From NCBI GenBank assembly GCA_964441445.1, contig CAYTYO010000001.1, forward strand, positions 1 to 51,708: a DNA stretch of 51,708 nt, written 5' to 3'. The notes under the pieces are model-generated. The model had not been told where the DNA came from, searched no databases, and worked only from the letters and a program-made list of their open reading frames with translations. Within the stretch, counting starts at the first letter, position 1. Each line of letters opens with the position of its first letter. The translations under genes and the position numbers were made by a program. Shown piece by piece: positions 1-47,262 of this stretch. This DNA is from an uncultured Gammaproteobacteria bacterium (GTDB lineage Bacteria; Patescibacteriota; Microgenomatia; CAZETR01; Amesbacteraceae).

Positions 1-37
1 AACCGCCATTGCGGGGGTTCGATTCCCCCCCAGGCCT
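1..37 (+). tRNA. 3' fragment of a tRNA (T-arm plus acceptor 3' strand), cut by the window edge
   Basis: GGGGG-TTCGATT-CCCCC T-arm at 13-29, then a 7-nt acceptor strand and discriminator. The anticodon lies outside the window, so identity is unknown. Confidence 0.7.
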
Positions 38-19211: not shown

Positions 19212-19487
19212 TATTATTAACAATAATGTGTTTTCCCTGGGGATAAGGGGTGAACCGTTTGTGAATATCTTGAATAACAATAAGGAAGAGTGTATAAACC
19301 TTGCCACTAGCAGTGGGCAGATTGTGGAGTGATGATAAAACTATCCACAATTAGGTGTATAAGTGGTTAGGCATCTTATTAAGATGAAGTAAACCCGAAA
19401 GCTGGGTTTGAAACTTAAAAGATGTTAACTTATCCACAGAGCCTACTACTTAAACGACTATATAATTGAAAGAAAGAATCGATAAAT
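19212..19487. promoter_or_regulatory. oriC-like dnaA-dnaN intergenic region with DnaA boxes
   Basis: TTATCCACA is perfect at 19430-19438. cTATCCACA is at 19341-19349 and TGgGGATAA at 19238-19246. AT-rich stretch at 19440-19485. Confidence 0.6.
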
Positions 19488-20609: not shown

Positions 20610-21061
20610 GGGAGAGGATCTAAATAGTATACTTTAATAGTTGAAGGAACCTTAATTCTCTCCAGAGTGGTTTTTACTTCGGATTCCACATCTTTTTGAG
20701 TGAATCCAGTTTTGAGTCTGACGCGAATAGATTTTTTTTCAAAGTCATAAATCAACAAAAACCGGTCAGTAATTATGGGTAATTTAGTGAGAAAAGGCAT
20801 GTCATTTATTACCTTTGAAGTATAAGCACTTATTTCAAAGTCAATGGCGGCTTGCATCTTACCTTGTTCGATAATATTAGGTGAGAGGGCGGTTGTAGGA
20901 ATTACTTGAGAAGTGGGGGTGATAGTAGACGCGGGCGGATTTGTTTGAGGATTAGTTGTAGGAGTTTTTTCAGTTGTTATAGATATGGAAATAGCCATAA
21001 CAATTAAAATAATCACTAATGTGACGGCGTTTTTTTTTAAAAATGTTAGTATTTTTTTCAT
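20606..21061 (-). CDS. Hypothetical bitopic protein (TM plus Thr/Pro linker plus a domain of about 90 aa), last gene of the T4SS-like operon
   Basis: N-terminal TM VTLVIILIVMAISISI. No recognisable motif. Overlaps the upstream gene by 4 nt. Confidence 0.5.
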   Translation of the reverse strand: MKKILTFLKKNAVTLVIILIVMAISISITTEKTPTTNPQTNPPASTITPTSQVIPTTALSPNIIEQGKMQAAIDFEISAYTSKVINDMPFLTKLPIITDRFLLIYDFEKKSIRVRLKTGFTQKDVESEVKTTLERIKVPSTIKVYYLDPLP

Positions 21062-21915
21062 CGTGAGCCAAAACCTACAATTGATAAATCACCCCACCTG
21101 GCGCTAAGACCACTGATGGTATAGGCAGTACTTTTTAAACTGTTGTTTGATTCTACAGTGATGATGGCATCTCCGGGAAGTATTTGCCAAACCATGGCTA
21201 CATGGTCACCATTGCGGCCACGAGGACTACCGTCTCTGGCAATAATAATTGCGTCGCCCTGTTTAATACGCGAGGGATTGGCTAGAGCCTGGTTGATATC
21301 GACGTAACGGTTTTGGTTGACAAACCAGCTGCGCATACTAGGGGTGTAGATACAGTCTGGACATATAGATACGCCGGTTTCTGAGAAAGCCTTGATTGGC
21401 AGATACGTGCACCAGAATAAATTTTGACCACCAACTGGAGGGAAAGGGTTCGCTTGGAAGGCAGCCATATCAAACAACTCCGGATAATCGGGAGAGCGGT
21501 TCCAGAAACACCAAAAACCCCGGTATAGATTGTTAACAATGGTCCACGCACGGCTGCTGGTTGGGTCACCCGCAGAATTGGAGAAACTTAACGGTTCGTA
21601 ATCAGGGGTGCAACTGACGGGAGTTCCATCCCAGAGTGCAGTACGAAGCAGTCCCTGCGGTGTTACAAAGGCGGAGGCATTCATAATAAAAACGATGACA
21701 ACGAAGGTCATCCAAATAGTAAAACCTATGCCTGTGGCAATAGACACGATAACCATTAGATGAAAAAAATCTCTGGATATTGACTTTTTGAGCCCCAGAC
21801 CAAATCTTTCTGACGAAGACTTTTTTCCAAAAATTCCGGCTCCACCACCAAAAAGATCTTTGGTTTTTCCGAGAAAATTGCGAACAAAGGAAATTGGGGA
21901 TGTAATTTTTGCCAT
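21058..21915 (-). CDS. CHAP/NlpC-P60-like cell-wall hydrolase, membrane anchored (VirB1-equivalent role inferred)
   Basis: One TM. Candidate catalytic Cys in NLFWCTYLPIKAF and His in GDHVAMVWQI...ITVESNN. Confidence 0.5.
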   Translation of the reverse strand: MAKITSPISFVRNFLGKTKDLFGGGAGIFGKKSSSERFGLGLKKSISRDFFHLMVIVSIATGIGFTIWMTFVVIVFIMNASAFVTPQGLLRTALWDGTPVSCTPDYEPLSFSNSAGDPTSSRAWTIVNNLYRGFWCFWNRSPDYPELFDMAAFQANPFPPVGGQNLFWCTYLPIKAFSETGVSICPDCIYTPSMRSWFVNQNRYVDINQALANPSRIKQGDAIIIARDGSPRGRNGDHVAMVWQILPGDAIITVESNNSLKSTAYTISGLSARWGDLSIVGFGSR

Positions 21916-22196
21916 CAGGAATTAATTTTTTCGAGAATTAATAAAGGAAGTTTAAGGAGGTGATCTTTTTCTTCCTGGTATTTATTGGCAAAATGCTCAT
22001 CTGACTCATGAACTTCAATCAGATGTCGGAGTTCTTGCGGGGATTTGGAGAGAATTTGGCTGGCCCAATTCCAAAGAGGGGCTGAGGCGGAGGAAAAACT
22101 TTCAAGCTCTTTGTTTTCGTTACAAATGGAGATGATGGAGTTTTCCAATTCACTGATGACCGACCGGTCTAAATATTCGGGGAACGAAAAATTCAT
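21915..22196 (-). CDS. Hypothetical acidic 93-aa cytoplasmic protein
   Basis: ORF tightly coupled between the VirB4-like and CHAP-like genes. No motif recognised. Confidence 0.4.
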   Translation of the reverse strand: MNFSFPEYLDRSVISELENSIISICNENKELESFSSASAPLWNWASQILSKSPQELRHLIEVHESDEHFANKYQEEKDHLLKLPLLILEKINS

Positions 22197-24052
22197 TTTT
22201 GTTCGGCTTGAGCAACTAAGTGAGCCTTGATACCGGCTTCAACTTGTTTTTGGGCTAAGATTTCCGAGGGTTTGGTGGTGATCAATTTATGCTCGTCGGG
22301 TGAAGCGACAAATCTAACAGCAACATGATTATTACCAGCAAAGAATAAACCTTCGCCGACATTGGCACTGAGCAAAAGATGTTTTTCTCCTTCGGAGAGA
22401 TAAAAAACCTGAGTAATTTTGTCTACACCGGCAGGTGACTGTTTCATGAGAATTTGAATTGAAGAGTTGGTGACGATGGCTTTGCCGAAATCGGTGTTAA
22501 GAAAATCTTCCACATCCTGAGTGATGGTGGTTAGCCCGAGGAAATATTTGCGGGCACGTTTGGCGACACCGTAAAGAAAATTGGCAGAGTCGGGATAGCG
22601 CATGAGGTACCAGGCTTCATCAACCACAAGAATGCGTTTTTTGAGGTCACGGCGCATTTTGGTCCAAATGTAATCAAGGATTATAAATATTGCAATCGGT
22701 TTAAGAGAATCTTCAAGATCCCGGACAGAGAAGACGGTGAATTGGTTTTTTAACTGGACATTAGAGGGCTGATCAATGATGCCGGTAAAGCTGCCCTTGA
22801 CGAACCGCTCAATGCGATCGGCCAATGAAAGGGCCAATGGTTCCTCCATGCCGATGAAAGCCTTGTACAAGTCTTCCATGAGCGGAGGAGTGTTCTTTTG
22901 AGTTGATGGGTCGGGGGTAATGCCTTTCATTTTGTAAGCTAACCCCAGTGCCCGATCCAGAAGGGCTTCTTCTGTCGGGTTAAGGTCTCCCATGATGACT
23001 TTAAACATGGAGTGGAGAGATTGAATTTTGAGATTTAGTTCATTTTCTTCGGATGTTTCAGTGAGAAGAGATAAATCAAAAGGATTGATACGATTTTGGG
23101 AACTGTAGGCAAAATTAAGGTAGTCGCCACCCACGGCATCACAAAGAGTTTTATATTCGTTTTCAGGATCGATGACTATAACCTCAGTGCCGAACATAAG
23201 TGATCTGAGGATTTCCAACTTGACCGTATATGACTTCCCGGCACCGGCTTTGGCAAAGACTACAGTATTGGCATTTTCAAGGGTGAACCGGTCAAAGATC
23301 ACCAAACTGCCGTTGTGCTGGTTGATGCCGTATAAAATTCCTTCATTACTGGTAAGCTCTGACGAGGTGAAGGGAAACGTGGTAGCCAATGAGGTGGTAT
23401 CCATGTTTCGGGTAACCATAAGATGATCGACACAGGAGGGGAGAGTGTTTTTAAAGCCTTCAGCCTGTTGGAGAAGGGTTGGAGTGGCTTGAACCAGGAG
23501 GGCAGAAAGGGAACTGCTGACCTGTTTACTGGTGGTTTCCAGTTCTGACGGCGAGTCTGTGGGGATAGTGACATAGAGAGAGAACTGGAAAAACCGTTCG
23601 ATGCCTTTTACCAGGGAGTCTTGGAGAGTCATAGCGTCTTCCAATTTGGCCTGGGTGACTGGGTTTACGACCCGACCACGCTGAATATCAGTGGAGATTT
23701 CGGCACCCATTTCGGCGATTTTGCGGCGGAGATCATCCAAAGTACTTTTGCTTTCGACGGGATAGATGAACATGGAGATGCGAAGCGAGTGATCAAAATT
23801 GATAATCGGACCGAGCCAGTTGCTGGAAACAAACCGACGATTAATATTGGTAAAGAAGCTGCGGTAATAGCTGTCATTGATTTTTAAAACATTAAAATCC
23901 ACAGTTGCAGATTGCGGAGCGATAATGTCGCGGACAGTTTTGGCTTCTTTAAGTGTTTTTGTGGGCAAAATGCGGGAGTTGTCTACAGTAGCGGTTGGCT
24001 TAACCTGGGCTGGTTGAGAAGGTGTGGCGGCTTTGGATTTAAACAGCTTCAT
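22193..24052 (-). CDS. VirB4/TrbE/PrgJ-family T4SS ATPase
   Basis: Walker A FAKAGAGKSYTV, Walker B ILVVDEAWYL, downstream GLTTITQDVEDF. N-terminal YYRSFF...SSNWLGPII...ISMFIYPV block, typical of VirB4. Confidence 0.8.
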   Translation of the reverse strand: MKLFKSKAATPSQPAQVKPTATVDNSRILPTKTLKEAKTVRDIIAPQSATVDFNVLKINDSYYRSFFTNINRRFVSSNWLGPIINFDHSLRISMFIYPVESKSTLDDLRRKIAEMGAEISTDIQRGRVVNPVTQAKLEDAMTLQDSLVKGIERFFQFSLYVTIPTDSPSELETTSKQVSSSLSALLVQATPTLLQQAEGFKNTLPSCVDHLMVTRNMDTTSLATTFPFTSSELTSNEGILYGINQHNGSLVIFDRFTLENANTVVFAKAGAGKSYTVKLEILRSLMFGTEVIVIDPENEYKTLCDAVGGDYLNFAYSSQNRINPFDLSLLTETSEENELNLKIQSLHSMFKVIMGDLNPTEEALLDRALGLAYKMKGITPDPSTQKNTPPLMEDLYKAFIGMEEPLALSLADRIERFVKGSFTGIIDQPSNVQLKNQFTVFSVRDLEDSLKPIAIFIILDYIWTKMRRDLKKRILVVDEAWYLMRYPDSANFLYGVAKRARKYFLGLTTITQDVEDFLNTDFGKAIVTNSSIQILMKQSPAGVDKITQVFYLSEGEKHLLLSANVGEGLFFAGNNHVAVRFVASPDEHKLITTKPSEILAQKQVEAGIKAHLVAQAEQK

Positions 24053-24816
24053 GTTTTAGGGGTTGAAGGATTGATAACAGCTGAATTAACGGTGGAAGCA
24101 GCGGGTGGAGCTGCTGGTGTGGGGGAGGGAGGAGCTGAGGCCGGGGGTTGAGGGCTGGCGGAAATTGGCATGGCTTCTGTTCGGGGAAGAGAAACATGCG
24201 TACCAATAGAGTCGGGGTTGTAGGCATCGAAATAAAACTGGAGAATTTCCGGAGAAGTAAGCTGACGACCTTTAAGACCAATGCGGGTGAGCAAACGAAG
24301 CAAATGATCACGTTTGGGAGCAAGGTTAGTTGTAGCTCTGTCGATAATATATTCTTTGGGCAGGCGGGATTTGGCAGTTTGGCCACCTAGGGATTTAATA
24401 GAGGAAGAAATACCCAGCTCGAGAGAGCTGAAAGGAATAGAGATATAAAATTTCTTGTCAAGAACATTACCCTGGCGAACTATGGCTTTGACGAAATCCC
24501 GGTATTTGGTCATCTGATCTTTTACTTTAGGAGAAGTGATAGTAGCTAACTGAGCATCAATTTTGTCAATATAGCTCGAGATATCTTTGCGTTTACTGAC
24601 GACGACGATTTGGATGGAGAAGGTAAGGGAGTTGAGAAGTTGGGCATAGGAATAGATGGTTGCGTCCTGTTCTCGCTCGGATAAAAGGCCAAAATTTACG
24701 GCGTTGACGTCCAAGATCATGCAGGCTGAGCCATCGGAGAGGATGACAATATCATTGATGATGTCATCAACATCCAAAAGATCCTGAGTGCGAGGGGGGA
24801 AAGGATTTTTGCTCAT
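24049..24816 (-). CDS. VirB4 N-terminal-like protein with Pro-rich tail
   Basis: DIVILSDGSACMILDVNAVNFGLLSEREQDATIYSYAQLLNSLTFSIQIVV resembles the extreme N-terminal module of Gram-positive VirB4 ATPases. 4-nt overlap with the ATPase gene. Confidence 0.45.
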   Translation of the reverse strand: MSKNPFPPRTQDLLDVDDIINDIVILSDGSACMILDVNAVNFGLLSEREQDATIYSYAQLLNSLTFSIQIVVVSKRKDISSYIDKIDAQLATITSPKVKDQMTKYRDFVKAIVRQGNVLDKKFYISIPFSSLELGISSSIKSLGGQTAKSRLPKEYIIDRATTNLAPKRDHLLRLLTRIGLKGRQLTSPEILQFYFDAYNPDSIGTHVSLPRTEAMPISASPQPPASAPPSPTPAAPPAASTVNSAVINPSTPKT

Positions 24817-25847
24817 ACTTTTTTACCTTGAAGAATAACAGGCGGAACAATGTTACCTTTAACCTGAATTGAAACAGGGTCGAATTTAAGACCTTCCTTT
24901 TCAGCAAGAATATTGTAGGTTCCAGCCGGAAGCGGAATGGCGATTTGAAACTGACCTAATTTGTTGGTACGCAGGGCTCTGGCCGGAATGCCGGTATTAG
25001 TGTCAACTATTTCCACGGTGATCTGAGGCAGGGGTTGATTGGCGTCGTCGGTGATAAGTCCGGAAAGAATATTGGGGCTGGTAGGTGAAGAAATAAGAGA
25101 AGTAGTGGGGGCGGAGGGTGCTGAGACCAACGTGGAGGTTTGAGGAAGTTGGGAGGATTTGGTGTAGAGAGAAACAGAGGAAGTGGTGGGGGCTGTAGGC
25201 AGAGTGGGAGTTGGCTGGGAGATGGAGGAAGCAGGAGAAGGACTAGATGAAGCAGTATCGGACGGAGCGGAAGTGGCTACGGGTTGGCTATTAGGTGCGG
25301 ATGGCGGAGTTGTGGGAGCACCAAACACTTTGGATGTGGTAGTTTCTTTTCCAACAGGGACGGAACCTGAGCGGTGAAGTTTTGAGGCAATAAATTCTGA
25401 GAATGACGGGAGAACAATAGTGTGGGCAGGGGCGGGCTTGGCAGGAGGAGGTGGTGGGGCAGAAATTGGAGGAGAAGCTGATTTAGAGGCGGGAGGTGAA
25501 GCAGGAGAAGGGGCTGTAACGGGGGTAACAGGGGGAGGCGGAAGGACAGAATCGATAACAGCCTGAGGTATCCAGACAAATTCAGTGGGACTATAAATTG
25601 CTTTAACAAAAGCGCTGAGCCAGGAAGAGAAAGGACGACCGTTGATGGGGATGAAAGCCAAAAGAACACCGATTAAGACAGATAGCCCTGCCAGGGGATA
25701 TTTAACAACGGCGATAATTTCCAGTCTGAAAAACATGTAGCCGACGAGGATGCCTCCGGCCAACTGCAGGAATTGTTTTAAGGTCATGTCACCGACAAGA
25801 TGAAACTCGTAAGAAGAAATATTTTGAGGAACAGGATGATTTTCCAT
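24813..25847 (-). CDS. PrgI/VirB3-like membrane protein fused to a P/S/T-rich linker and a carboxypeptidase-regulatory-like beta-sandwich
   Basis: The N-terminus ISSYEFHLVGDMTLKQFLQLAGGILVG plus two TMs is PrgI-like. The C-terminus ITVEIVDTNTGIPARALRTNKLGQFQIAIPLPAGTYNILAEKEG is CarboxypepD_reg-like. Confidence 0.55.
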   Translation of the reverse strand: MENHPVPQNISSYEFHLVGDMTLKQFLQLAGGILVGYMFFRLEIIAVVKYPLAGLSVLIGVLLAFIPINGRPFSSWLSAFVKAIYSPTEFVWIPQAVIDSVLPPPPVTPVTAPSPASPPASKSASPPISAPPPPPAKPAPAHTIVLPSFSEFIASKLHRSGSVPVGKETTTSKVFGAPTTPPSAPNSQPVATSAPSDTASSSPSPASSISQPTPTLPTAPTTSSVSLYTKSSQLPQTSTLVSAPSAPTTSLISSPTSPNILSGLITDDANQPLPQITVEIVDTNTGIPARALRTNKLGQFQIAIPLPAGTYNILAEKEGLKFDPVSIQVKGNIVPPVILQGKKV

Positions 25848-26137: not shown

Positions 26138-29100
26138 ATGGGAGAAGGCATGATGTTTAACGATGGTTTTGTGAGAGGGCCAGATACTGGCGGGGGCGGC
26201 GGTGGAACAGTTGATGCGGAACAATCCAGGGTTGATAATCTGGCGAAAGAATATTTGAAAAGGACAGGAAGGCCGTTTAAAGATTATGTCTTGGAAAGAA
26301 TTGAAGGGAAGATACCAACTACGGGAGAACAGAAAGAAAGGAGAAGAGCAGATGATGAATTTAGTTCCTCAATCAGTCCTGAACAACGAGATGTGGTGGA
26401 GAGGGTAGTTGCAGAAGAAAAGGCGGCGCTTCGAGGAGAAAAGGCGATTGAAGGACGATCTCCGATAGTAACGCAGGATGATTGGGAAAAATATACTCGG
26501 CCAGATAAGACTAGTGGAAAAGGAGGATCGGGTGTGATAGTGGCTGTTCAGACAGCAGCTGAAGCTACACCAGAACAGAGAGAAACTGAATTTGACAGGA
26601 GGGTGGCCGAGGAGGTCCAACGGGAGGAGGATGAAGCAAAGCGAGAAGCACGAGATGTTGACTTGGCCAAAGTGGCAAAGAACTTAGCTCAAGCCGCAAA
26701 GATATTTGGACTGGCTTGGGGGGTTGGAGAGGCTTTTGAGGAAGCCACAGAGTTTCTTCGAGAGAAGAGGAAAAATGGAGAGCGCGTGAGTATAAGGCAA
26801 TTTGAGAAATGGAAGAAAGAGAGAGTACAACAGACAAATATACCCAATGCTGTAATATCCCCACCTCCGGAACAATCAGTACTTGAGGAAAAGCTAGGAG
26901 AAAATGAGGAATGGAACAGAGACATGCAAAAGTTGGCCGAATTATGTAGACAGGAAGAACGCGGTGCGCAGTTGCCATCAGAGGAGAAAGAAAAAAAAGT
27001 TTTGCGGGACAGAATAAATGAAATGTGGGATAAATTTAAAGGACCCGATACTGAAATACAGCGGCACGACACATGGAAAGACGCGGTTGCGGGAGTAATT
27101 GATGACATAATCAAACGTGACGCAGATGTAAAGAAGGAGAGGGAAAAGGCTTTAGTTCCTCAGGGGGCTCCAGATAGATACAATCCATTGTCTTTAGCAG
27201 AGGAATATTTAGACCGCACAATTAATGAAATTGTGCGGAAAGGCGAGGATGGGAATCCACCGCCAGATGAGGAAGATTCTATAAAGTTGGATTGGTACAG
27301 GGGAGTAAAAAGGAACGTGCAGGAAGCTGCTTTAAAGGCAGAATTGGCGTTATATAGCGATTTGGGTTTGGAGAACAGACCGGGGTGGGACATTATTGTC
27401 GGGGAAACTAAGAAGTCTTTGGCCAAACTTAAATTGGAAATAGATTACCTAAATTTTGGTGACGGGATAAGAGATAACACTAAGCGGCGACTTGCCGGCT
27501 TGGCGACTCGATATGTTGATTATATACAGACTGAGGGAGATCAGGCTGAGGCATTAAAAAAAGTGAATGAAGATAAACAAAAGGCAGCAGAGCGTGCAGA
27601 AAGAGAGAAAAGCAAACCTGTAGACAAGGGAGCAGAGTCTATAACTAACCCTGAATACTTAAAGAAAGAAGCGTTAAGGGTCTTGGCATTAGTCATGATC
27701 AGGGGGTATGCAGATCCGACAGACATGACGGTTATAAGGGCCGGTCTAAAACATATGGACGCCAGAACGGAGAAACTGGCAACCACCGATTTACAAATAT
27801 TGGAAGATTTAGACGGGATAAATCCATTAGATTCAAAAACATATATCTCCATGAACTGGGACAGGGAGAACCTAATGATGTGTTTAGAAGGAGAGACAAG
27901 AAGAGTCACCCAAAGAAGGATAATTCAATTAATGGGTTTAGATATGGCATACTCCGGCGTAGAAGTGGGTAAAGACTGGGCAAATAAAGTGAATCGACAC
28001 AAGAAACTTGGAGATTTTCTTGACCAATCAGTGTTTCGTAATTATATAAATGAGTTAGGGCAAGAGGTAAGGGTCGATAAAGATATGAAAAATCTGGAGT
28101 TTTGGGAGTTGTCCCCAGGACAATCAGAAACATTTAAGTTTTTGCTGAGGAGACAAGCTGCTATAGATAGTGGGGCAAGTAATGTTGATGAGGCCGCAAA
28201 GGGTGATGATATTAAAAGGGAAGTGGGGGCTGCTATCCAGATATTGAGAAACATGCATATTGGGGATAAGTTGTCGTTCAATCAAGATCATTTAATGGCG
28301 ACTCCGGCGTACTGGTATTTCCATATGTATGGAGCGGCTTTAGACAGAATAGCCAAAGTGCCAATGCATTCCAGGTGGAGGCCATATATGAAGTTTCATA
28401 AAGACCAGTTTCCTGAATACCCAGAACAGAAAAACGATGAGGGTGAAAGTTTAGGATTACCAAAGAAAGAGGTGGCGCCCATGGTGCACAGATTGTTTCC
28501 GGAAGACTGGTTCAACCCAATAGCAGTTGAGAGTTCGTTGTTTGATGAAAAAGGCGCTAGGCAAATGACTTATATTGATTTTTTGCGAGAGGGAGATAAG
28601 GGTAGAGTTCCTCAACCAGGCGAGTTTACGACCACAAAGCAAAAGCTTACAAAACAGTACGGTTTTGCCAATGCCGGGCAAAGACGAGTGTGGGATGTTT
28701 TGTTCGGGGGGAGTGATTATATAGATTTGAAAGTCGGTGCGGGCGAGAGTAATAAATGGAAGGTTGAAGTCGACTTAACTTTTGATCCGAACAAGGCATG
28801 GATGGACGGGCTGGGAACAGCAATAAATGTTACTGCTGGGGATATGGGATTGACAAAAAGATTTGTGGATGCGGATCCATCAACGGAGGCTGGCAGACAG
28901 GAGAGAGAAACAGTTGAAAAGCAAATTCAACAAATCGGGGGTGTTTTGGCGATGGCGGCTGTCGGACTAGGGCTGGAGCGAGACACGTTGAGCATTAAAG
29001 ACTTGTCAGCGTGGGCAGTGGGAGTGTCGCTTGAAGGATTAACGTGGACATTGGCTCCAGATGTAAAAGCAAGGCTGATCTCCGAAGAAACGGCTAAGTG

Positions 29101-29518
29101 GATAAAGTGGCACGGAAAGCCCACCATTAAAGAAGCCGAAATGGTGGTGAGAGGTTGGTTTAGTCAAGTACGTTTGCAACGGGGGGAAAATTGGCAAGAC
29201 TATTATGAAAGGGATTTGAGAGGGGATCTTCCACCGCAAGATGAAGATTTGATCGCAAGATTGCGTTTCAGAGCGAGTGGGCTGGTTGGACTTCAGGAGG
29301 CTATGGAGGTGAAGAAAAGATTAGATTATCGTCGGAGAGATGGCTGGACCAACACTTGGTTTGGAGGAGCAGGCACTTTTAGTGAGCGAGACTGGAGGGA
29401 ACAGAGGTCCAACAATAAATTTATGATAAACGCATTTAAATTGATGGACAATGGCCATCTCTTGAATATTGCAACTACTCTGAACCTGAATATTTACGAG
29501 GCTGGTAAAACTAAGTAG
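26138..29518 (+). CDS. 1126-aa orphan protein, highly charged N-terminal half, Trp-rich C-terminal half, no TM or signal peptide
   Basis: Uninterrupted ORF with strong purine bias on the coding strand. I found no P-loop or other catalytic motif. Confidence 0.7.
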   Translation: MGEGMMFNDGFVRGPDTGGGGGGTVDAEQSRVDNLAKEYLKRTGRPFKDYVLERIEGKIPTTGEQKERRRADDEFSSSISPEQRDVVERVVAEEKAALRGEKAIEGRSPIVTQDDWEKYTRPDKTSGKGGSGVIVAVQTAAEATPEQRETEFDRRVAEEVQREEDEAKREARDVDLAKVAKNLAQAAKIFGLAWGVGEAFEEATEFLREKRKNGERVSIRQFEKWKKERVQQTNIPNAVISPPPEQSVLEEKLGENEEWNRDMQKLAELCRQEERGAQLPSEEKEKKVLRDRINEMWDKFKGPDTEIQRHDTWKDAVAGVIDDIIKRDADVKKEREKALVPQGAPDRYNPLSLAEEYLDRTINEIVRKGEDGNPPPDEEDSIKLDWYRGVKRNVQEAALKAELALYSDLGLENRPGWDIIVGETKKSLAKLKLEIDYLNFGDGIRDNTKRRLAGLATRYVDYIQTEGDQAEALKKVNEDKQKAAERAEREKSKPVDKGAESITNPEYLKKEALRVLALVMIRGYADPTDMTVIRAGLKHMDARTEKLATTDLQILEDLDGINPLDSKTYISMNWDRENLMMCLEGETRRVTQRRIIQLMGLDMAYSGVEVGKDWANKVNRHKKLGDFLDQSVFRNYINELGQEVRVDKDMKNLEFWELSPGQSETFKFLLRRQAAIDSGASNVDEAAKGDDIKREVGAAIQILRNMHIGDKLSFNQDHLMATPAYWYFHMYGAALDRIAKVPMHSRWRPYMKFHKDQFPEYPEQKNDEGESLGLPKKEVAPMVHRLFPEDWFNPIAVESSLFDEKGARQMTYIDFLREGDKGRVPQPGEFTTTKQKLTKQYGFANAGQRRVWDVLFGGSDYIDLKVGAGESNKWKVEVDLTFDPNKAWMDGLGTAINVTAGDMGLTKRFVDADPSTEAGRQERETVEKQIQQIGGVLAMAAVGLGLERDTLSIKDLSAWAVGVSLEGLTWTLAPDVKARLISEETAKWIKWHGKPTIKEAEMVVRGWFSQVRLQRGENWQDYYERDLRGDLPPQDEDLIARLRFRASGLVGLQEAMEVKKRLDYRRRDGWTNTWFGGAGTFSERDWREQRSNNKFMINAFKLMDNGHLLNIATTLNLNIYEAGKTK

Positions 29519-34736: not shown

Positions 34737-35105
34737 TTATATACATGCTCCTGCCTGGCGATTGATACAGATATCAAATACAGTGACATTGATCCCCAAG
34801 AATGTGCCGATTAAGCCAAGAATAACCCAGGCGGAGAGAGAAATGATTAAACCACCCAGGGCATAGGTGAGTGTTTGCTGTGCTAATGTGGTGGCTTGTT
34901 TATCGGCACCTGCTGATAAGTAACGGTAACCGCCATAAAGCAGCATGCCGAGCGAAGCTAAGGAAATAAGCGGAATTATGATACGAAGAAGGTTAGAAAA
35001 TATCGCATTCAAATCCTCGATTTCTGCAGGAGGGGCATCGTTTTGGGCGTGGGCGGAGTTGGCTAATAAAAAAAAGAAGGTAAATATATACGAGAAAATA
35101 GACAT
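34737..35105 (-). CDS. VirB2/TrbC-like T4SS pilin paralog 12 (122 aa)
   Basis: Signal peptide ...SAHAQ. Two helices flank LLYGGYRYLSAGADKQATTLAQQTLTYALGGLIISL. Confidence 0.65.
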   Translation of the reverse strand: MSIFSYIFTFFFLLANSAHAQNDAPPAEIEDLNAIFSNLLRIIIPLISLASLGMLLYGGYRYLSAGADKQATTLAQQTLTYALGGLIISLSAWVILGLIGTFLGINVTVFDICINRQAGACI

Positions 35106-35131
35106 GGTGTTGATTTGATATTAGTTTAATA

Positions 35132-35161
35132 AAACAATCCCGGCAAGAGCCGGGATTGTTT
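35132..35161 (-). terminator. Rho-independent terminator after pilin paralog 11
   Basis: Minus strand AAACAATCCCGGC-TCTT-GCCGGGATTGTTT, followed by TATT. Starts 18 nt after the stop codon at 35180-35182. Confidence 0.65.
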
Positions 35162-35179
35162 GTCGATCGGACTTGACGG

Positions 35180-35605
35180 TTACTCGGTGCCAATCGTTTG
35201 CAGATTGACTTGAATAAGGTCGACGCCGAACAAAACTCTGATGATATACAGCAGAGCATAAGCTGAGAAGACGATGGCCAAACCGATTAAGGCCGCAGTA
35301 ATCTTTTTGCGGGCTTTTTCAGTACCTTCTTTATCTCCTCCGGCCAAGATCCATTGCAGACCACCCCAAAGCAAAACAACGAAGGAAATCACTCCAGCAA
35401 CACCCAACATGATATTAAGAATGGTTCTTAACATGTCAGACGGGGTGAAAGCGGTTAGAGGGGCGAAATCTTCGGAAATGTTAGCGATTGAGGCTTGGTC
35501 CCCACCATCAATAGACTGGAGTTCAACCTGGGCTAAAACATTTGCGGGATGAGCTATAAATGGAATTGCAGCAACGACTGAGGAAGCAATTTTTTTAAAG
35601 TTCAT
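35180..35605 (-). CDS. VirB2/TrbC-like T4SS pilin paralog 11 (141 aa), candidate major pilin
   Basis: Signal peptide ...NVLAQ. Core LLWGGLQWILAGGDKEGTEKARKKITAALIGLAIVF. Has its own promoter, SD (GGAGGTGA) and terminator. Confidence 0.7.
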   Translation of the reverse strand: MNFKKIASSVVAAIPFIAHPANVLAQVELQSIDGGDQASIANISEDFAPLTAFTPSDMLRTILNIMLGVAGVISFVVLLWGGLQWILAGGDKEGTEKARKKITAALIGLAIVFSAYALLYIIRVLFGVDLIQVNLQTIGTE

Positions 35606-35635
35606 AATTTGATCCTCACCTCCATTTCAGGAGAA

Positions 35636-35646
35636 AGTATAGCACA
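35636..35646 (-). promoter_or_regulatory. Extended -10 promoter element TGTGCTATACT upstream of pilin paralog 11
   Basis: Read on the minus strand, 30 nt upstream of the ATG at 35605. Close to the TGTGCTATATT 11-mer seen at 45745 and 50203. Confidence 0.5.
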
Positions 35647-35662
35647 AATGGCCAGGGGAGCT

Positions 35663-36052
35663 CTAATTTCCGAGGTTGGCAATTCGGAATTCCAAGAGAT
35701 CTACTTGGAATAGCGCGCGGAGAATAAAGACAATGGCGTAGGCTGAAAAGACGATGGCCAATCCGGTCAAGGCAAAGATGATTTTTTTGCGGGCTTTTTC
35801 CGCGGCGTCTTTGTCACCGCCGGAAGTAATCCACTGAAATCCTCCCAGGAGCAGGAAAATGAAAGCGGCAACACCCGATCCTCCGAGCAACCAAAGAATG
35901 GATGTGCGGACATACTGACCAGGGCGAAGGTTGTAAAGATTGGTAAATGGTGATGCGGGATCCTGAAGATTGATAACGCTTTGAGCTGAAGCTTTACCCA
36001 CTGAAATTAGGAGGGCAAAAATAAAGAAAAAAAGCGTTTTTATTTTTGACAT
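35663..36052 (-). CDS. VirB2/TrbC-like T4SS pilin paralog 10 (129 aa)
   Basis: Signal peptide ...KASAQ. Core LLLGGFQWITSGGDKDAAEKARKKIIFALTGLAIVF. Confidence 0.7.
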   Translation of the reverse strand: MSKIKTLFFFIFALLISVGKASAQSVINLQDPASPFTNLYNLRPGQYVRTSILWLLGGSGVAAFIFLLLGGFQWITSGGDKDAAEKARKKIIFALTGLAIVFSAYAIVFILRALFQVDLLEFRIANLGN

Positions 36053-36098
36053 GGGCTGGTTTTTAGTTTAGCGGAAGTATCTTCCGGTTACAAGTTAA

Positions 36099-36749
36099 TT
36101 AGGGGCAGGCGTAAGAGCAGGTGATGGGTGGACAGCTGGTACTGCCAGTCGGATCACTCCACCCAGAGCTAGTGCAAGAGTGACACTGGCCGTCGTCTCC
36201 CAAACCAATTTGGCCGAGACTGGCGCATTGCATGGGTTCGGTATTGCACGGACAAGGACCACCTTGAGTGCTGGGGGTAGGTTGAGGATCGGGGTTTGAG
36301 GTAGGATTAGGACCTGGGCCAGGTCCTGGTCCGCCTCCACCTCCTCCGCCGCTGGCGTTTTGACCAAGTGGAGAAAGAATGATCCTAATGGGATCGATGC
36401 CGAAAAAGGTTCTAACCGCAAAGAAAATTGCATAAATCGAGAAAACGAGAATAAGACCAAGTAAAGCGTTGGCAATTATTTTCCGGGCTTTTTCGGCCAC
36501 ATCTTTGTCGCCGCCGGAAGTAACCCACCTGATGCCGCCGATAAGAAGAAAAATTAAAGAAGCTACACCGGCGATGCCTAAAAGTGAATTAAGAATAGTA
36601 CGAACATATTGGGAAGGAGTGATGTCCTGAAGAGTTTGAAAGTTGACGTTGGCAGTGGTAATTCCGACCTGATCAGTTTGAGCGACAACCGAGGAGATGC
36701 CGGCAAACAAAAAAGTAAGTATAAATGCGACACCAAACAGTTTTGGCAT
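36099..36749 (-). CDS. VirB2/TrbC-like pilin paralog 9 with Gly/Pro linker and Cys-rich C-terminal knot (216 aa)
   Basis: Core LLIGGIRWVTSGGDKDVAEKARKIIANALLGLILVF, then GGGGGGPGPGPGPNP...PCPCNTEPMQCASLG...CHSCTSSGWSDPTGSTSCPPITCSYACP. Confidence 0.7.
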   Translation of the reverse strand: MPKLFGVAFILTFLFAGISSVVAQTDQVGITTANVNFQTLQDITPSQYVRTILNSLLGIAGVASLIFLLIGGIRWVTSGGDKDVAEKARKIIANALLGLILVFSIYAIFFAVRTFFGIDPIRIILSPLGQNASGGGGGGGPGPGPGPNPTSNPDPQPTPSTQGGPCPCNTEPMQCASLGQIGLGDDGQCHSCTSSGWSDPTGSTSCPPITCSYACP

Positions 36750-36752
36750 AGA

Positions 36753-37079
36753 TCAGGTTCCCAGCGGGCCAATGTTAAAGCCGATCAGATCGACATTGAA
36801 GAGGACGCGGAGAATAAACAGGATGGCGTAGGCCGAAAAGACAACCGCCAAACCAATCAAAGCGTTAATAATTTTTTTGCGGGCTTTTTCAACAGCATCC
36901 TTGTCGCTACCGGCAGTAATCCACTGAACTCCACCCCAAAGCAAGAAGATAAAGGAACCAACGCCAGCTGCCCCAAGAAGAAGATTAATTGCAGTAGTGA
37001 CGTAAGAAGATGGGGTAATATCACCCAAAAAATCATATCTGGCGTCTCCTGTAACTATAGTGACTAAGTTTTCGTCCAT
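36753..37079 (-). CDS. VirB2/TrbC-like pilin paralog 8 (108 aa, no N-terminal signal peptide)
   Basis: Core LLWGGVQWITAGSDKDAVEKARKKIINALIGLAVVF. Starts MDENLVTIV. Confidence 0.65.
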   Translation of the reverse strand: MDENLVTIVTGDARYDFLGDITPSSYVTTAINLLLGAAGVGSFIFLLWGGVQWITAGSDKDAVEKARKKIINALIGLAVVFSAYAILFILRVLFNVDLIGFNIGPLGT

Positions 37080-37082
37080 TTT

Positions 37083-37472
37083 TTACGGATAAGGTGGGGC
37101 GGCCGGACCTCCGCCGCTTTCTAATTGGGGGAAATTAAATTGAGTTAGGGAAATTCCAAAGACCGTACCCACGACCCAGGCAACGGCATAGACTGAGAGC
37201 AAGAGGATGATGCCTATGACAGCATTGCGAATTTTGGCGGTAGCTTTTTGGACTGATTCCTTGTCTCCTCCGGCTGAGATGTATTGGTAACCGGCAATAA
37301 GGAGGTTGATGAAAAAATATATGCCCCCAATACCAAGTGCTGTAGTAATAATGTTGCGAAGCAAGAGTTGGACCATGACACTGGGGGCGGTGCCACCGTC
37401 GGCAGCGTCGGCCGCATTTCCGATTTGGGCATTAATGACAGGGTTGATTATTTGAAATAGGGAGAAAAACAT
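37083..37472 (-). CDS. VirB2/TrbC-like pilin paralog 7 (129 aa)
   Basis: Short leader ...VINAQ. Core LLIAGYQYISAGGDKESVQKATAKIRNAVIGIILLL. Confidence 0.65.
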   Translation of the reverse strand: MFFSLFQIINPVINAQIGNAADAADGGTAPSVMVQLLLRNIITTALGIGGIYFFINLLIAGYQYISAGGDKESVQKATAKIRNAVIGIILLLSVYAVAWVVGTVFGISLTQFNFPQLESGGGPAAPPYP

Positions 37473-37476
37473 AATA

Positions 37477-37860
37477 TTAAGGGTTAGGATTTACTATACG
37501 AGCAAATGTAACATGGAAGTTGAATATATCTAAACCAAAGAAACTACCCATTAATCCGAGTAGGGCATACGAAGCCACGATTACAAGCAATCCGAGTACG
37601 GAAAAAATCAATCGTTTCTGGGAACTTTGAACGGTCGCCTTTTCACCCGAAGCACCGATCCATTGGAGGCCGGCAATAATAATCTGAAACAGAAACCACA
37701 GGGCACCAATAATAGTAAGCAGCCCAATCAGACTGGAGATAAGCACTTCTGTGCGAGTGAAGGCATAGTAATAGTTATCAGGACCTCTTTCAAAGTTGCC
37801 CAACGGGCCATATGAATTTATGCTGCCGAGGGGGACTGCCTGAGCGAGAAAATCTCTCAT
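37477..37860 (-). CDS. VirB2/TrbC-like pilin paralog 6 (127 aa, no signal peptide)
   Basis: Core IIIAGLQWIGASGEKATVQSSQKRLIFSVLGLLVIV. Its start overlaps the upstream gene by 4 nt. Confidence 0.6.
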   Translation of the reverse strand: MRDFLAQAVPLGSINSYGPLGNFERGPDNYYYAFTRTEVLISSLIGLLTIIGALWFLFQIIIAGLQWIGASGEKATVQSSQKRLIFSVLGLLVIVASYALLGLMGSFFGLDIFNFHVTFARIVNPNP

Positions 37861-38228
37861 GGAGTTACTGTTTGCGGGCCATAAATAACAGGGTTAATAA
37901 GCAGATCCCAACCATCGGGACCAAAGATGACAAAGCCCATAAGGCCACCAATAAGGATCGAACCAGCGACAATGAGCAAACCGAGAAAAGATCTCCAAAT
38001 GCGATCATGTGCGTTTTGAACTTTTTTGGCGTCTCCTTGGGCACTAAGATAGCCGAAGCCAGCAAGTACCAAATTAAGCAACGTGTAGAGACCGGCGATG
38101 ACGACTGCAAATCTGATTAGTGAGGTGAAAAGGACAATCAGTCCGCCGCCGGTATCGGTTTGGTATCCGGCGGTACCAGGGGACAGAATTGTAAAGGGAT
38201 TATTAATAGTGCCAAAACTTCCGCCCAT
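37857..38228 (-). CDS. VirB2/TrbC-like pilin paralog 5 (123 aa, no signal peptide)
   Basis: Core LVLAGFGYLSAQGDAKKVQNAHDRIWRSFLGLLIVA. Confidence 0.6.
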   Translation of the reverse strand: MGGSFGTINNPFTILSPGTAGYQTDTGGGLIVLFTSLIRFAVVIAGLYTLLNLVLAGFGYLSAQGDAKKVQNAHDRIWRSFLGLLIVAGSILIGGLMGFVIFGPDGWDLLINPVIYGPQTVTP

Positions 38229-38236
38229 TGTGTTAT

Positions 38237-38638
38237 TTAGGTTACTAGTGAACTAATAAAATTGATACCGGTAATCGTGCCGATAATTTGTAGTATAAAA
38301 TAAGCGGCAACGACAAGCAACAAACCAATTGCTCCTTGGGTGATGCTTCTTTGAGCTTTTTGTGCAACTTGGACAGAATCCATTTGGCCGCTATTAATGA
38401 CATATTGGTAACCGCCATAAAGAATTAAAAAAACAAAGAAAACTCCAGCGATTACCATAGCATTGGGAAGGAGTAGGGAAATCACACCGCCAATATTGCC
38501 GTTTCGAAAAGTGGTGGCGTTGGGATTGTATAAGAAAAATTCATTTGGAAGATTTACGGCTTGGGCATTCGTTGTGTGGGGAAAAAACAAGATAGAAACA
38601 CTGTCTATGAGTAATAGCGAAAACAGGGACGGTTTCAT
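38237..38638 (-). CDS. VirB2/TrbC-like pilin paralog 4 (133 aa)
   Basis: Signal peptide ...TTNAQ. Core LILYGGYQYVINSGQMDSVQVAQKAQRSITQGAIGLLLVV. Confidence 0.6.
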   Translation of the reverse strand: MKPSLFSLLLIDSVSILFFPHTTNAQAVNLPNEFFLYNPNATTFRNGNIGGVISLLLPNAMVIAGVFFVFLILYGGYQYVINSGQMDSVQVAQKAQRSITQGAIGLLLVVAAYFILQIIGTITGINFISSLVT

Positions 38639-38934
38639 ACAAGATCAGCTCCGGTGATAGTTTCTAACATTTGGAGGATAAAAAAGGCAGCAATTATAAT
38701 AATCAAGCCCAGTGCGGCGTTGGTCAACTGTTTGGTAACCTGTTGAATTCGACCTTCATCTCCAAACGCGGTCATATATGAGACGCCAGAAATAATTAAT
38801 TGATAAAAGAAGTATAGTCCGGCGGCGGAGATAGCGAAAAGGAGAGCACGACTCATTACATCAGATGGGAGAGTGTTATAGTCCGTAAATTGGGTGCTGG
38901 GGTTGCCAATACCACTGATTTGGGCGAGTTTCAT
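38635..38934 (-). CDS. VirB2/TrbC-like pilin paralog 3 (about 99 aa, no signal peptide)
   Basis: Core QLIISGVSYMTAFGDEGRIQQVTKQLTNAALGLIIII. I prefer the start at 38934 (MKLAQISG). The track start at 38991 overlaps the upstream gene by 44 nt. Confidence 0.55.
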   Translation of the reverse strand: MKLAQISGIGNPSTQFTDYNTLPSDVMSRALLFAISAAGLYFFYQLIISGVSYMTAFGDEGRIQQVTKQLTNAALGLIIIIAAFFILQMLETITGADLV

Positions 38935-38947
38935 AGTAGGGTATAAA

Positions 38948-39505
38948 TTATACAGAAAAACCAAATGAGCCGGTGCCGAAAATCCGAACACCGACGAAAT
39001 TGAAAATCAATATTGCGATGGAGATGATAACCAAACCCAGCAGAGCTGAAACCATAAATGATTTTGCATCATTTACCCGTTTGGGGTCACCAGAGGCAGT
39101 GACCATAAGAAAACCAGCGTAGGCAATGGTGACAAAAGCTGCGCCAGCAGCAATGCCAACTGACCAGGTAACGATCTGATTGATAAAAGTCTTGGGTTCG
39201 GAGGCATTGATACAACCAATGGAGGTGCGAACATTTCCAGGAGTTGAGTTGCAAAAAACTTCTGTCGTGTCTACAACGGGAGCTGTGGCAGGGAGGGAGG
39301 TTTGGCAGGTTTGTTGTTCCGCAAACGTACCACAACATTGAATGAGGACAAGGTCATTGTCGTAACAGCCCCAAGTATCAATGGGGCAGGCGGCGTTGGT
39401 AGGAGCGACACAAGCTGCCTTTGCTTGAGTAAGAAAAAAGAACAGTTGTAGGACAATCGACAGAGATATAAAACTGAAGATTAGTGTCCGATGCGTTTTT
39501 ATCAT
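38948..39505 (-). CDS. Pilin paralog 2: N-terminal Cys-rich module fused to a VirB2/TrbC-like pilin domain (185 aa)
   Basis: Signal peptide ...TQAKA. Cys module CVAPTNAACPIDTWGCYDNDLVLIQCCGTFAEQQTC. Then SIGCINASEP...IAYAGFLMVTASGDPKRVNDAKSFMVSALLGLVIIS. Confidence 0.65.
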   Translation of the reverse strand: MIKTHRTLIFSFISLSIVLQLFFFLTQAKAACVAPTNAACPIDTWGCYDNDLVLIQCCGTFAEQQTCQTSLPATAPVVDTTEVFCNSTPGNVRTSIGCINASEPKTFINQIVTWSVGIAAGAAFVTIAYAGFLMVTASGDPKRVNDAKSFMVSALLGLVIISIAILIFNFVGVRIFGTGSFGFSV

Positions 39506-39589
39506 GGTCTATTGTTTTAAGTGTAGCACGTCAGAGGACACATGAGTACGTTGATTTTTCGGCCGATAATTATGGAGGTTAAGGATTAA

Positions 39590-40507
39590 TTACAGATTAA
39601 AACCAAAGGTCGTTAAATTAAGCACACGAACACCAATAAAGTTAAATATCAGTATGCTGAGTGCGATTGCAATGTAACCAATTAATGAGCTGGAAAGAAG
39701 TTGTTTCGCCTGGGTTATTTGGTCTTCTGATCCTGCAGCTGTGGTAAAAAGATATCCGGCGTAAATAATACAGAGGAAAAGAATTCCAGATCCCACTCTA
39801 ACGGTTAATCCAAGCACCTGACCAATAAGAGCTTTGGTATCTGAGGCATTAATGCAACCAATGGCAGTGCGGATTCCTGATGTGGATGAAAACGGATCAC
39901 AGAAGATTTGAATATTGTCGGTTGTGACGGGTGGTGGAGATCCTCCAACAATACAGGGCTGTGGGGATGCCGTGGTGCATTGTCCCACTGAGAGGACGAG
40001 ACAAACGTTGTTGTCCCAAGTGAACCCGGAGTCACAGTTACTGGTTTGGACCATGCATCTACCCGTGGATGAATTCCAGTTGCATTGAAAAGTATTGGGA
40101 GGGTTGACCGGATTAACTATACAAGGAAAATTACCAGATGCCTGGCACGCGGCTGCGGTGCTGTGAACACCACATTCCGTACCCGGCATGTATCCGGAAC
40201 CGCAGTTGCTTACCGATCCGCAGACCCCGGGAGATGAACGCCAAGCACATGAATACGTATTGAGTGGGGTGGCCGGGTCAACAACGCAGGTGTGTGGATT
40301 GCCAGTTTCACACACATCTACCGCCAGTCCGTAGCAAGGTGCGGAACCAACGATATATCCGGTATCGCAGTTGGAGTTTTGAACGGAACATTGATTTGCT
40401 GCTCCGTTCCAACCACAATTAAATATGCCTTGCGCCGAGATCGGGTTGGGGGTAAAAAAAGTAAGAATGAGTATGGAGATGAAGATAATTGGACGAAGAA
40501 TTTTCAC
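39590..40507 (-). CDS. Pilin paralog 1: three six-Cys modules fused to a VirB2/TrbC-like pilin domain (305 aa)
   Basis: Signal peptide ...ISAQ. Three repeats of about 55 aa (NCGW.., NTYSCAW.., NTFQCNW..). Then AIGCINASDT...IIYAGYLFTTAAGSEDQITQAKQLLSSSLIGYIAIA. GTG start. Confidence 0.7.
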   Translation of the reverse strand: MKILRPIIFISILILTFFTPNPISAQGIFNCGWNGAANQCSVQNSNCDTGYIVGSAPCYGLAVDVCETGNPHTCVVDPATPLNTYSCAWRSSPGVCGSVSNCGSGYMPGTECGVHSTAAACQASGNFPCIVNPVNPPNTFQCNWNSSTGRCMVQTSNCDSGFTWDNNVCLVLSVGQCTTASPQPCIVGGSPPPVTTDNIQIFCDPFSSTSGIRTAIGCINASDTKALIGQVLGLTVRVGSGILFLCIIYAGYLFTTAAGSEDQITQAKQLLSSSLIGYIAIALSILIFNFIGVRVLNLTTFGFNL

Positions 40508-46861: not shown

Positions 46862-47262
46862 GGTGGAGATGGAGGGAGTTGAACCCTCGTCTGTATAGAT
46901 TTGAATTCCAGTTGTTACAAGTTTAGTTGAAATAAAGCTTTCAACGGCTTTCGGTTGATTAGTCTTTTCTTTTGTGAAGCCAACCAAAAGTAACTTACCA
47001 AAAGAGCATCCCGATTTGGTTTAACTCCACATAGGTCAACAATCGGAAAAATTGAACCTAAGAGAGCCAGATCGTACCGGCTTAAGCGAATGCCGCGGAA
47101 GGTGCGAACTGGTTGACAGCCATGAACGGATTGATCTTCGCGATCAGACCGTCAAAACGTGCTTTTAAATTAGCACTTTGGTTTGAACTTGTTTTACGAG
47201 TGAATTCAGCCTCGGCTTGCTGGAAATTTCAAAGTACCTACACATCGAAACCCGTCATCCCC
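46862..47262 (-). ncRNA. ssrA: tmRNA (SsrA)
   Basis: The 5' end GGGGATGACGGGTTTCGA pairs with the 3' end CATCTCC-A-CC, giving a G3:U pair. T-arm GAGGGTTCAACTCCCTC. Internal tag frame ...NQFAPSAAFA-TAA, with the stop at 47082-47084. Confidence 0.85.

Follow-up and report, generated by a model that had tools for sequence, protein, structure and literature searches.

The region described here lies on contig CAYTYO010000001.1 of assembly GCA_964441445.1, of which a stretch of 51,708 nucleotides (the window) was analysed, and consists of a tandem array of 12 co-oriented open reading frames (ORFs) on the minus strand between positions 34737 and 40507. The genes, numbered P1 to P12 in the 5' to 3' direction of their strand, were initially recognised from the letters of the sequence without database searches (the sequence-only reading), and all of them are present where they had been placed (Table 1). 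All 12 products are small membrane proteins that belong to the PF18895 (T4SS_pilin) family and have a VirB2/TrbC-like helical hairpin, and the array belongs to a chromosomal, origin-proximal type IV secretion system (T4SS) of the monoderm (Gram-positive-like) type in a Candidatus Amesbacteria-like patescibacterium of the Microgenomatia.

A MAFFT alignment of the 12 proteins revealed one common core with two invariant Gly residues, in which a hydrophobic helix is followed by a Gly-rich turn, a short polar or basic loop and a second hydrophobic helix; the two hydrophobic segments were found in all 12 paralogs. The motif initially proposed for this core, [GA]G-x-x-[WY]-[ILV]-x-[SA]-x-G[DE], applies in its strict form to six of the 12 proteins, whereas the core itself is shared by all of them and a looser version, [GAS]-G-x-x-[WYFM]-[ILVMT]-x-x-x-[GSA]-[DEQS], fits 12/12. 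Profiles built from 11 paralogs each recovered every twelfth paralog at E <= 2e-12, and the profile of all 12 gave no match outside the array when run against the six-frame ORFs of the window. Hence, the alignment and the leave-one-out profiles confirm the proposed 12 tandem ORFs with a common core, and the possibility that unrelated small membrane proteins had been grouped together is not borne out. Chance hydrophobic ORFs were likewise rejected, because the family profile matches only these 12 ORFs in the window. The tight spacing claimed for most genes holds between P3 and P9, whose six junctions measure -4, 8, -4, 4, 3 and 3 nt in this order, but longer gaps separate P1/P2 (84 nt), P9/P10 (46 nt), P10/P11 (57 nt) and P11/P12 (74 nt), and P2 and P3 overlap by 44 nt as called. 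The latter overlap vanishes if P3 starts with the ATG at 38934; since a TATAAT box lies directly upstream of this codon, the overlap is probably a start-codon artefact, and the true P3 protein likely comprises 99 aa.

Table 1. Features of the pilin array and its surroundings. Positions refer to the window.
Feature	Position	Strand	Evidence or remark
P1, 'head'-class pilin, 305 aa	39590-40507	-	PF18895 28.0 bits
P2, 'head'-class pilin, 185 aa	38948-39505	-	PF18895 42.7 bits
P3, pilin	38635-38991	-	PF18895 29.4 bits; one-to-one orthologs in relatives
P4, pilin, 133 aa	38237-38638	-	PF18895 25.5 bits; leave-one-out E 1e-15; positional orthologs
P5, pilin, 123 aa	37857-38228	-	no Pfam match; leave-one-out E 1.5e-15; one-to-one positional orthologs
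P6, pilin, 127 aa	37477-37860	-	PF18895 18.8 bits; leave-one-out E 1e-19; positional orthologs
P7, pilin, 129 aa	37083-37472	-	PF18895 34.1 bits
P8, pilin, 108 aa	36753-37079	-	PF18895 37.6 bits; EKARKKI loop
P9, pilin of P8-P11 subfamily, 216 aa	36099-36749	-	PF18895 31.8 bits
P10, pilin of P8-P11 subfamily, 129 aa	35663-36052	-	PF18895 27.7 bits
P11, candidate major pilin, 141 aa	35180-35605	-	PF18895 38.2 bits, TrbC 20.8 bits
P12, 'tail'-class pilin, 122 aa	34737-35105	-	PF18895 28.7 bits, TrbC 18.1 bits
-10-like box of P1	40521-40529		TGCTAAACT
Extended -10-like promoter element upstream of P11	35636-35644	-	TGCTATACT; consensus match only
Perfect extended Shine-Dalgarno sequence of P11	35616-35623	-	GGAGGTGA, 10 nt before the start codon
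Intrinsic-terminator-like hairpin	35126-35161	-	13-bp stem and U-run, directly after P11 stop
17-nt block	35304-35320	+	TTTTTGCGGGCTTTTTC, encodes EKARK on the minus strand; further copies at 35784-35800 and 36874-36890
Secreted Cys-rich protein, 1111 aa	31377-34712	-	40 Cys; directly 3' of array; no Pfam family
Membrane protein, VirB6-like candidate, 597 aa	29528-31321	-	weak TrbL/VirB6 match, E 0.006
PrgI (VirB3-like) protein	24813-25847	-	PF12666 32.7 bits
VirB4-like ATPase	22193-24052	-	TraG P-loop 104.5 bits, AAA_10
Membrane-anchored putative CHAP cell-wall hydrolase, possible VirB1-like role	21058-21915	-	weak CHAP match, E 0.0033; N-terminal transmembrane segment
dnaA and dnaN	17829-20609	+	

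That the array was created by a collapsed or expanded assembly, or that chance ORFs of a region biased towards hydrophobic residues mimic it, has a negligible probability, and nothing was found in favour of either. The region contains neither long near-identical DNA repeats nor tandem repeats, the nucleotide identity between paralogs reaches at most 77% over short stretches (95 nt), the profile is specific for the 12 ORFs, and collinear arrays exist in many independent metagenome-assembled genomes (MAGs). The absence of near-identical repeats and the collinear independent assemblies exclude the assembly artefact that had been named as a possible refutation.

The gathering score of PF18895 (26.6 bits) is reached by nine of the 12 paralogs, with 27.7 to 42.7 bits. 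P4 and P6 score below it and P5 has no Pfam match at all; these three were recovered by the leave-one-out profiles (E 1e-15 to 1e-19) and by positional orthology. TrbC (PF04956) is the consistent second-best family, with P11 and P12 giving the highest scores in the window (Table 1). Among 48 family members, 47 matched PF18895 and 22 matched TrbC/VirB2 at E <= 0.01 (best 1.7e-5). The assignment to VirB2/TrbC-like T4SS pilins made by the sequence-only reading is thus supported, and the profile scores point to a distant relation to PF04956, short of formal membership. Structure predictions with AlphaFold2 (AF2) gave the expected hairpin for P11 (helices 55-88 and 92-126) with a confidence score (pLDDT) above 90 and for P2 (helices 104-136 and 141-176) with a pLDDT around 80, and a signal-peptide-like leader is found on seven of the 12 paralogs, P3, P5, P6 and P8 being among those that lack one. 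Type IV pilins or pseudopilins of type II secretion systems (T2SS) were considered as another identity and rejected, because the N-termini lack the prepilin-peptidase motif (G|F/M-x-x-x-E) and a two-helix hairpin is present instead.

To compare the array across species, related loci were found with the sub-alignment of P8-P11, the alignment of all 12 being too divergent for searching. The closest relatives are Candidatus Amesbacteria MAGs, which are up to 82% identical (one-genome-per-species GTDB contigs). Pilins were counted in 78 fetched loci with a profile made from the window paralogs and iterated once. The largest array of each locus comprises between 1 and 13 genes (median 6), Amesbacteria-like loci carry 8-13 copies, several of them 11, and at least 13 pilins are encoded in Amesbacteria RIFOXYB1_FULL_44_23 (L003), where the array meets the contig end. 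Twelve copies are at the upper end of this range yet typical for the lineage. The array had been regarded as exceptional, a view that is not supported, given the numbers in the relatives and the fact that arrays are the rule in Patescibacteria (PMC10633639; PMC12102498).

The order of the paralogs is conserved as well. According to reciprocal best matches, P2-P7 and P12 have one-to-one counterparts in the same order in other Amesbacteria, while the P8-P11 block comprises 2-6 copies among the relatives. The recurring pattern can be written as 2-(3)-4-5-6-(7)-[8..11]n-12 and is recognisable across Microgenomatia; the Spearman rho has a median of 0.74 in 68 loci and is about 1.0 in Amesbacteria. 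Positional classes were defined by assigning each pilin of all loci to its best-matching window paralog. The head (P1/P2) class comes first in 84% of the arrays and has a median N-terminal extension of 214 aa, which contains at least two Cys in 95% of cases. The tail (P12) class comes last in 92% of the loci, and the C-terminal tail contains a pair of Cys residues in 48% of these pilins.

The core identity over the whole array averages 29%, with 40% for P1/P2 and 52-70% within P8-P11. Hence, the proposed subfamily P8-P11 stands, and its EKARK[IK]I loop occurs in all four members and is confined to them; P7 is the sister of this subfamily, with 35-41% core identity to it. Within P8-P11 the third codon positions are 33-45% identical, and the synonymous distance (dS) calculated after Nei and Gojobori (NG86) is above 1.5 or undefined, which makes the corresponding ratio of non-synonymous to synonymous changes (dN/dS) unusable. 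The best cross-species orthologs of P8 (74%, in locus L005), P10 (69%, in L001) and P11 (86%, in L001) contrast with a maximum of 68% among the window paralogs. When all 79 arrays are considered, the nearest neighbour of a pilin belongs to another genome in 496 of 533 cases (93%). The saturated synonymous sites and the cross-genome neighbours imply that the duplications predate speciation and that there is no general concerted evolution, so the recent duplication or gene conversion suggested previously is not supported. In contrast, the report of a nucleotide block shared within the subfamily was correct. The 17-nt block TTTTTGCGGGCTTTTTC occurs exactly in P8, P10 and P11 and with two mismatches in P9 (36478-36494), with 0.04 expected by chance. 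An identical run of this length in three paralogs is statistically odd, as its p is about 2e-4 whether codon columns are shuffled or codon usage is resampled, and the synonymous sites around it are saturated. A single exact copy lies outside the window, in L002, and the block is therefore not a conserved nucleotide element. It is possible that it represents a micro-conversion tract or a chance retention.

These data bear directly on the idea that the paralogs are functionally equivalent, alternative major pilins, with one or a few in use at any time, and are retained to vary host range or antigens, as has been proposed for the VirB2 paralogs of Bartonella and Anaplasma. The different copy number of P8-P11 in close species, the location of the variable parts in the N- and C-terminal segments outside the hairpin and the possible micro-conversion tract would fit such a role, and adaptation to different host strains is suggested in PMC12102498. 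However, the one-to-one orthologs in fixed order, the saturation of synonymous sites between all paralogs and the prevalence of nearest relatives in other genomes, with neither concerted evolution nor recent turnover, speak against it. Paralogs are not closer within than between genomes, unlike what is expected of an antigenically varying set of the Bartonella/Anaplasma type. Furthermore, strong expression signals are predicted at one array position only, and SEML1_0017-0019 of the patescibacterium Southlakia epibionticum were each scored as essential (listed as GD/ES/ES in Table S1 of Wang et al. 2023, PMC10633639). The diversification scenario is disfavoured by the orthology pattern, and we regard it as unlikely. 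From the options offered by the sequence-only reading, the one of minor and major pilins in a heteropolymer is instead favoured, since one-to-one orthology and conserved gene order argue for it and against simple antigenic variation.

The expression signals mentioned above concern P11. Upstream of this gene an extended -10-like element, TGCTATACT, was predicted, and the same element is found at this place in L001, L002 and L003. It is followed by GGAGGTGA, the only full Shine-Dalgarno (SD) sequence among the 44 gene starts inspected. In 16 of 17 related arrays, the P11-type gene, usually the penultimate one, has the motif gaaaGGnGGTGA in front of it, and no other position of these arrays consistently has such an SD or a terminator signal. 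The terminator-like hairpin behind P11 has a folding energy of -24.3 kcal/mol (z -5.5), and none of 200 shuffled sequences was as stable; it was found by targeted folding, while a generic promoter and terminator scan performed barely above shuffles and missed it. P11 is also the paralog most conserved between species (78-86% compared to 40-77% for the others). A -10 box of its own combined with a perfect SD and a terminator is predicted only for P11, which is therefore likely the major pilin, as far as can be judged from sequence signals. In most other genes of the window an SD is missing and a TATAAT-like box precedes the start codon by only 8-20 nt, which suggests very short or absent 5' leaders.

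Several pilins carry additional domains. P1 consists of a signal-peptide-like N-terminus, three Cys-rich repeats and the pilin hairpin, with 21 Cys in total, and its repeats are homologous to repeats at aa 443-598 of the adjacent 1111-aa protein (E 3e-11). P2, with 8 Cys overall, is extended at its N-terminus by a Cys-rich segment, and its orthologs lead the arrays of relatives. A search of 5.8 billion proteins found no homolog of P1 beyond itself. P9 shows a second type of pilin-ectodomain fusion, in which the C-terminal half comprises a Gly/Pro-rich linker and an 8-Cys domain. P4, P5 and P6 form a conserved trio, P5 lacks an N-terminal signal-like segment, and the C-terminal tail of P12 holds a Cys pair.

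Downstream of the array and on the same strand follow the genes for the 1111-aa protein, the 597-aa protein, the PrgI/VirB3-like protein, a 255-aa ORF, the VirB4-like ATPase, the CHAP protein and a 151-aa ORF, behind which dnaN and dnaA are located on the opposite strand. The VirB6-like, PrgI, VirB4 and CHAP genes are situated 3-13 kb from the array, and the adjoining dnaA and dnaN place the cluster close to the replication origin. Dozens of Microgenomatia loci share the order SpoIID-like gene, divergent junction, pilin array, large secreted protein, VirB6-like, PrgI, orf255 and VirB4. A large protein occupies the position of the 1111-aa protein in 15 loci and is conserved only in parts. The 597-aa protein has a signal or transmembrane segment and about six transmembrane helices, and 56 of the 78 loci retain it right behind the array and the large secreted protein; position and weak profile similarity make it a candidate for the highly divergent VirB6 that is 'missing' in Microgenomatia. 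PrgI occurs as a fusion with a CarboxypepD_reg (Ig-like) domain at the C-terminus. A plus-strand ORF of 1126 aa (26138-29518), which has neither a Pfam family nor a transmembrane segment, splits the cluster between the VirB6-like gene and PrgI; a weak positional equivalent of this ORF exists only in L001. No relaxase or type IV coupling-protein (T4CP) domain was detected in any scanned ORF of the window, and no VirB5 tip protein was recognised. A tblastn search with P11 against 72,556 plasmids gave no meaningful match and thus no evidence for a plasmid origin. Many species-representative MAG records (L001, L006, L008, L010 and others) are titled 'uncultured Gammaproteobacteria' while containing Amesbacteria/Microgenomatia-type arrays and synteny; these titles appear to be mislabelled.

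Collectively, we favour, with a probability of roughly 55%, the interpretation that the locus is the pilin array of a patescibacterial T4SS, in which ordered and ancient subunit classes with P11 as abundant major subunit form a filament or conduit from their hairpins. The hairpins would be inserted into the cytoplasmic membrane, seven of them with a leader and the others presumably as bare hairpins, from where the VirB4, VirB3/PrgI and VirB6-like machinery might extract them and polymerise a pilus-like filament or conduit contacting the host bacterium. The head pilins P1 and P2 may expose their Cys-rich ectodomain outside the filament as a putative adhesin or tip-like module; by analogy with the solved VirB2/TraA pili, the extensions of such pilins would point outward. 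P3-P7 would be minor subunits of low expression, and P8-P11 a block of species-variable copy number that includes P11 as the abundant subunit. The gene of the tail pilin P12 could share a transcript with those of the large secreted Cys-rich protein and the VirB6-like protein. The sequence data show the family membership, the hairpin fold, the linkage to a T4SS, the ancient orthology in fixed order and the signals around P11; that a filament is formed, the stoichiometry of its subunits, extensions that face outward and a function as adhesin are the steps of this model that we infer. A more far-reaching version remains tentative, in which at least seven ancient, non-interchangeable pilin classes, with their genes in an assembly-like order, make up a multi-component filament. 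These would include a Cys-rich head that bears an adhesin, the 4-5-6 trio, one highly expressed major pilin of the P11 type with extra copies that are lineage-specific, and a tail coupled to the large secreted protein and VirB6. If true, the logic of major plus minor pilins, so far found only in type IV pili and T2SS, would be realised in VirB2-type pili, for which it is unprecedented.

A use of the hairpins outside any pilus has to be weighed against this model. Here, the pilin homologs would be parts of a membrane channel, or small proteins that are secreted via Sec or delivered by the T4SS into the host membrane. Monoderm systems of the mating-pair formation class FATA (MPF-FATA) are normally without a pilus, no filament has been imaged, and the hairpin is generic and hydrophobic, with ATP-synthase subunit c and pore-forming toxins among the best Foldseek matches. 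Moreover, genes in the T4SS region of TM7x are annotated as 'putative effectors' and 'Sec secreted array'. On the other hand, the consistent match to PF18895 with TrbC/VirB2 in second place and the structure-based annotation as pilins by Wang et al. (2023) speak against such a function, and one predicted strongly expressed member beside many weak ones is the pattern of a filament system. We consider a non-pilus function unlikely.

Other observations weigh against the filament model itself. No paralog reaches the gathering score of TrbC PF04956 (27.9 bits). The Foldseek search of the PDB with the P11 model gave no match at E <= 0.001 (best E 0.44, generic helical hairpins), solved conjugative pilins were absent from its top matches, and nothing significant came up when PDB sequences were searched with a profile of the 12 aligned paralogs; the hairpin fold is too generic, so that structure alone neither confirms nor denies a VirB2 relationship. 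The N-terminal extension of P2 stayed unmodelled by AF2, and the model of this domain is uninformative because homolog searches with P1 and P2 returned almost nothing besides the window's own proteins. The promoter, SD and terminator of P11 are consensus or energy predictions, and the terminator-like hairpin follows the P11-type gene in only 9 of 17 related arrays. To our knowledge, none of the patescibacterial T4SSs has been seen to make a filament, so pilus formation in these systems is argued by analogy, and the adhesin role of the Cys-rich domains is putative. Finally, the essentiality of single S. epibionticum pilins in transposon sequencing (Tn-seq) may be partly due to polar effects.

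Two further features of the window lie apart from the array. The plus-strand ORF at 9004-10089 combines Sua5/YrdC (TsaC) and TsaE, a fusion of two proteins of t6A synthesis, and adjoins TsaD. For the tmRNA gene on the minus strand (46862-47262), the predicted tag peptide is long, with 26 residues (ARFDGLIAKINPFMAVNQFAPSAAFA).

Pilin arrays of this kind have already been published and are typical of the ultra-small Patescibacteria, and the present one is ordinary among them, if large. Wang et al. (2023; PMC10633639) described an essential series of predicted pilins inside a relaxase-less T4SS cluster of S. epibionticum, and in their tables SEML1_0014-0016, 0018 and 0019 are assigned to PF18895. 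A review from 2025 (PMC12857230) mentions six divergent VirB2-like pilins of this organism and a speculative pilus conduit. The survey of Quiñonero-Coronel et al. (2025; PMC12102498) reports that 1,948 assemblies of Patescibacteria encode VirB2-like pilins and that 383 assemblies contain a total of 441 arrays with 2-11 genes, most commonly in Microgenomatia and Saccharimonadia, with a mean array identity of 25%, a maximum of 54% and a T4SS near dnaA. Since such arrays and the Pfam family are known, the array itself adds little. Its value is that of a clean and complete example on a 51.7-kb contig, which extends from the pilins through dnaA. The fixed classes and the one member with predicted strong expression provide testable predictions on how the essential but mechanistically obscure T4SS of epibionts makes contact with the host, and the same applies to the Cys-rich head pilins, whose repeats recur in the adjacent giant secreted protein. 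In this regard, the comparison also singles out a VirB6 candidate in Microgenomatia, where VirB6 is scarce according to PMC12102498. Keyword searches of papers including PMC12102498 found neither conserved positional classes nor a single SD/terminator-flanked pilin; relative to these sources, the cross-species paralog order and the restriction of -10 box, SD and terminator to P11 are new.

Compared with known systems, the closest likeness exists to the published patescibacterial arrays (Southlakia epibionticum ML1 with SEML1_0014-0019 and the 441 arrays of PMC12102498). They share PF18895 membership, tandem divergent paralogs and a relaxase-less MPF-FATA-like cluster with PrgI and VirB4 near dnaA; the host lineage here, Microgenomatia, belongs to the two classes in which arrays abound most. 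The reported mean identity of 25% compares with 29% in the cores here, the published maximum of 11 genes is exceeded by one, and the reported maximum identity of 54% stands against up to 70% in P8-P11, although the measures differ (core here, unstated there). With VirB2 of A. tumefaciens and TrbC of RP4 as diderm representatives, the proteins have in common the small size, a leader, two hydrophobic helices with a short polar or basic loop, a weak recurrent profile similarity and the genetic association with VirB3, VirB4 and VirB6 homologs. They differ from these by sub-gathering scores, a monoderm host without an outer-membrane core complex, twelve genes instead of one, large Cys-rich ectodomains in some members and the lack of a recognised VirB5. 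Tandem amplification of virB2-like genes within the locus is also known from the T4SSs of Bartonella and Anaplasma phagocytophilum (cited in PMC12102498). However, those sets are read as antigenic or host-interaction variants, whereas the paralogs here are ancient, saturated and in fixed order with one-to-one orthologs. The type IV pilus and T2SS sets (PilA with FimU-PilVWXE; GspG with GspHIJK) resemble the array in possible working only: one strong subunit is accompanied by ordered, divergent paralogs of (predicted) low expression, one of them with an enlarged domain. There is no homology to them and no class III signal peptide, the hairpin stands against an N-terminal helix with a globular head, and the ATPase is a different one.

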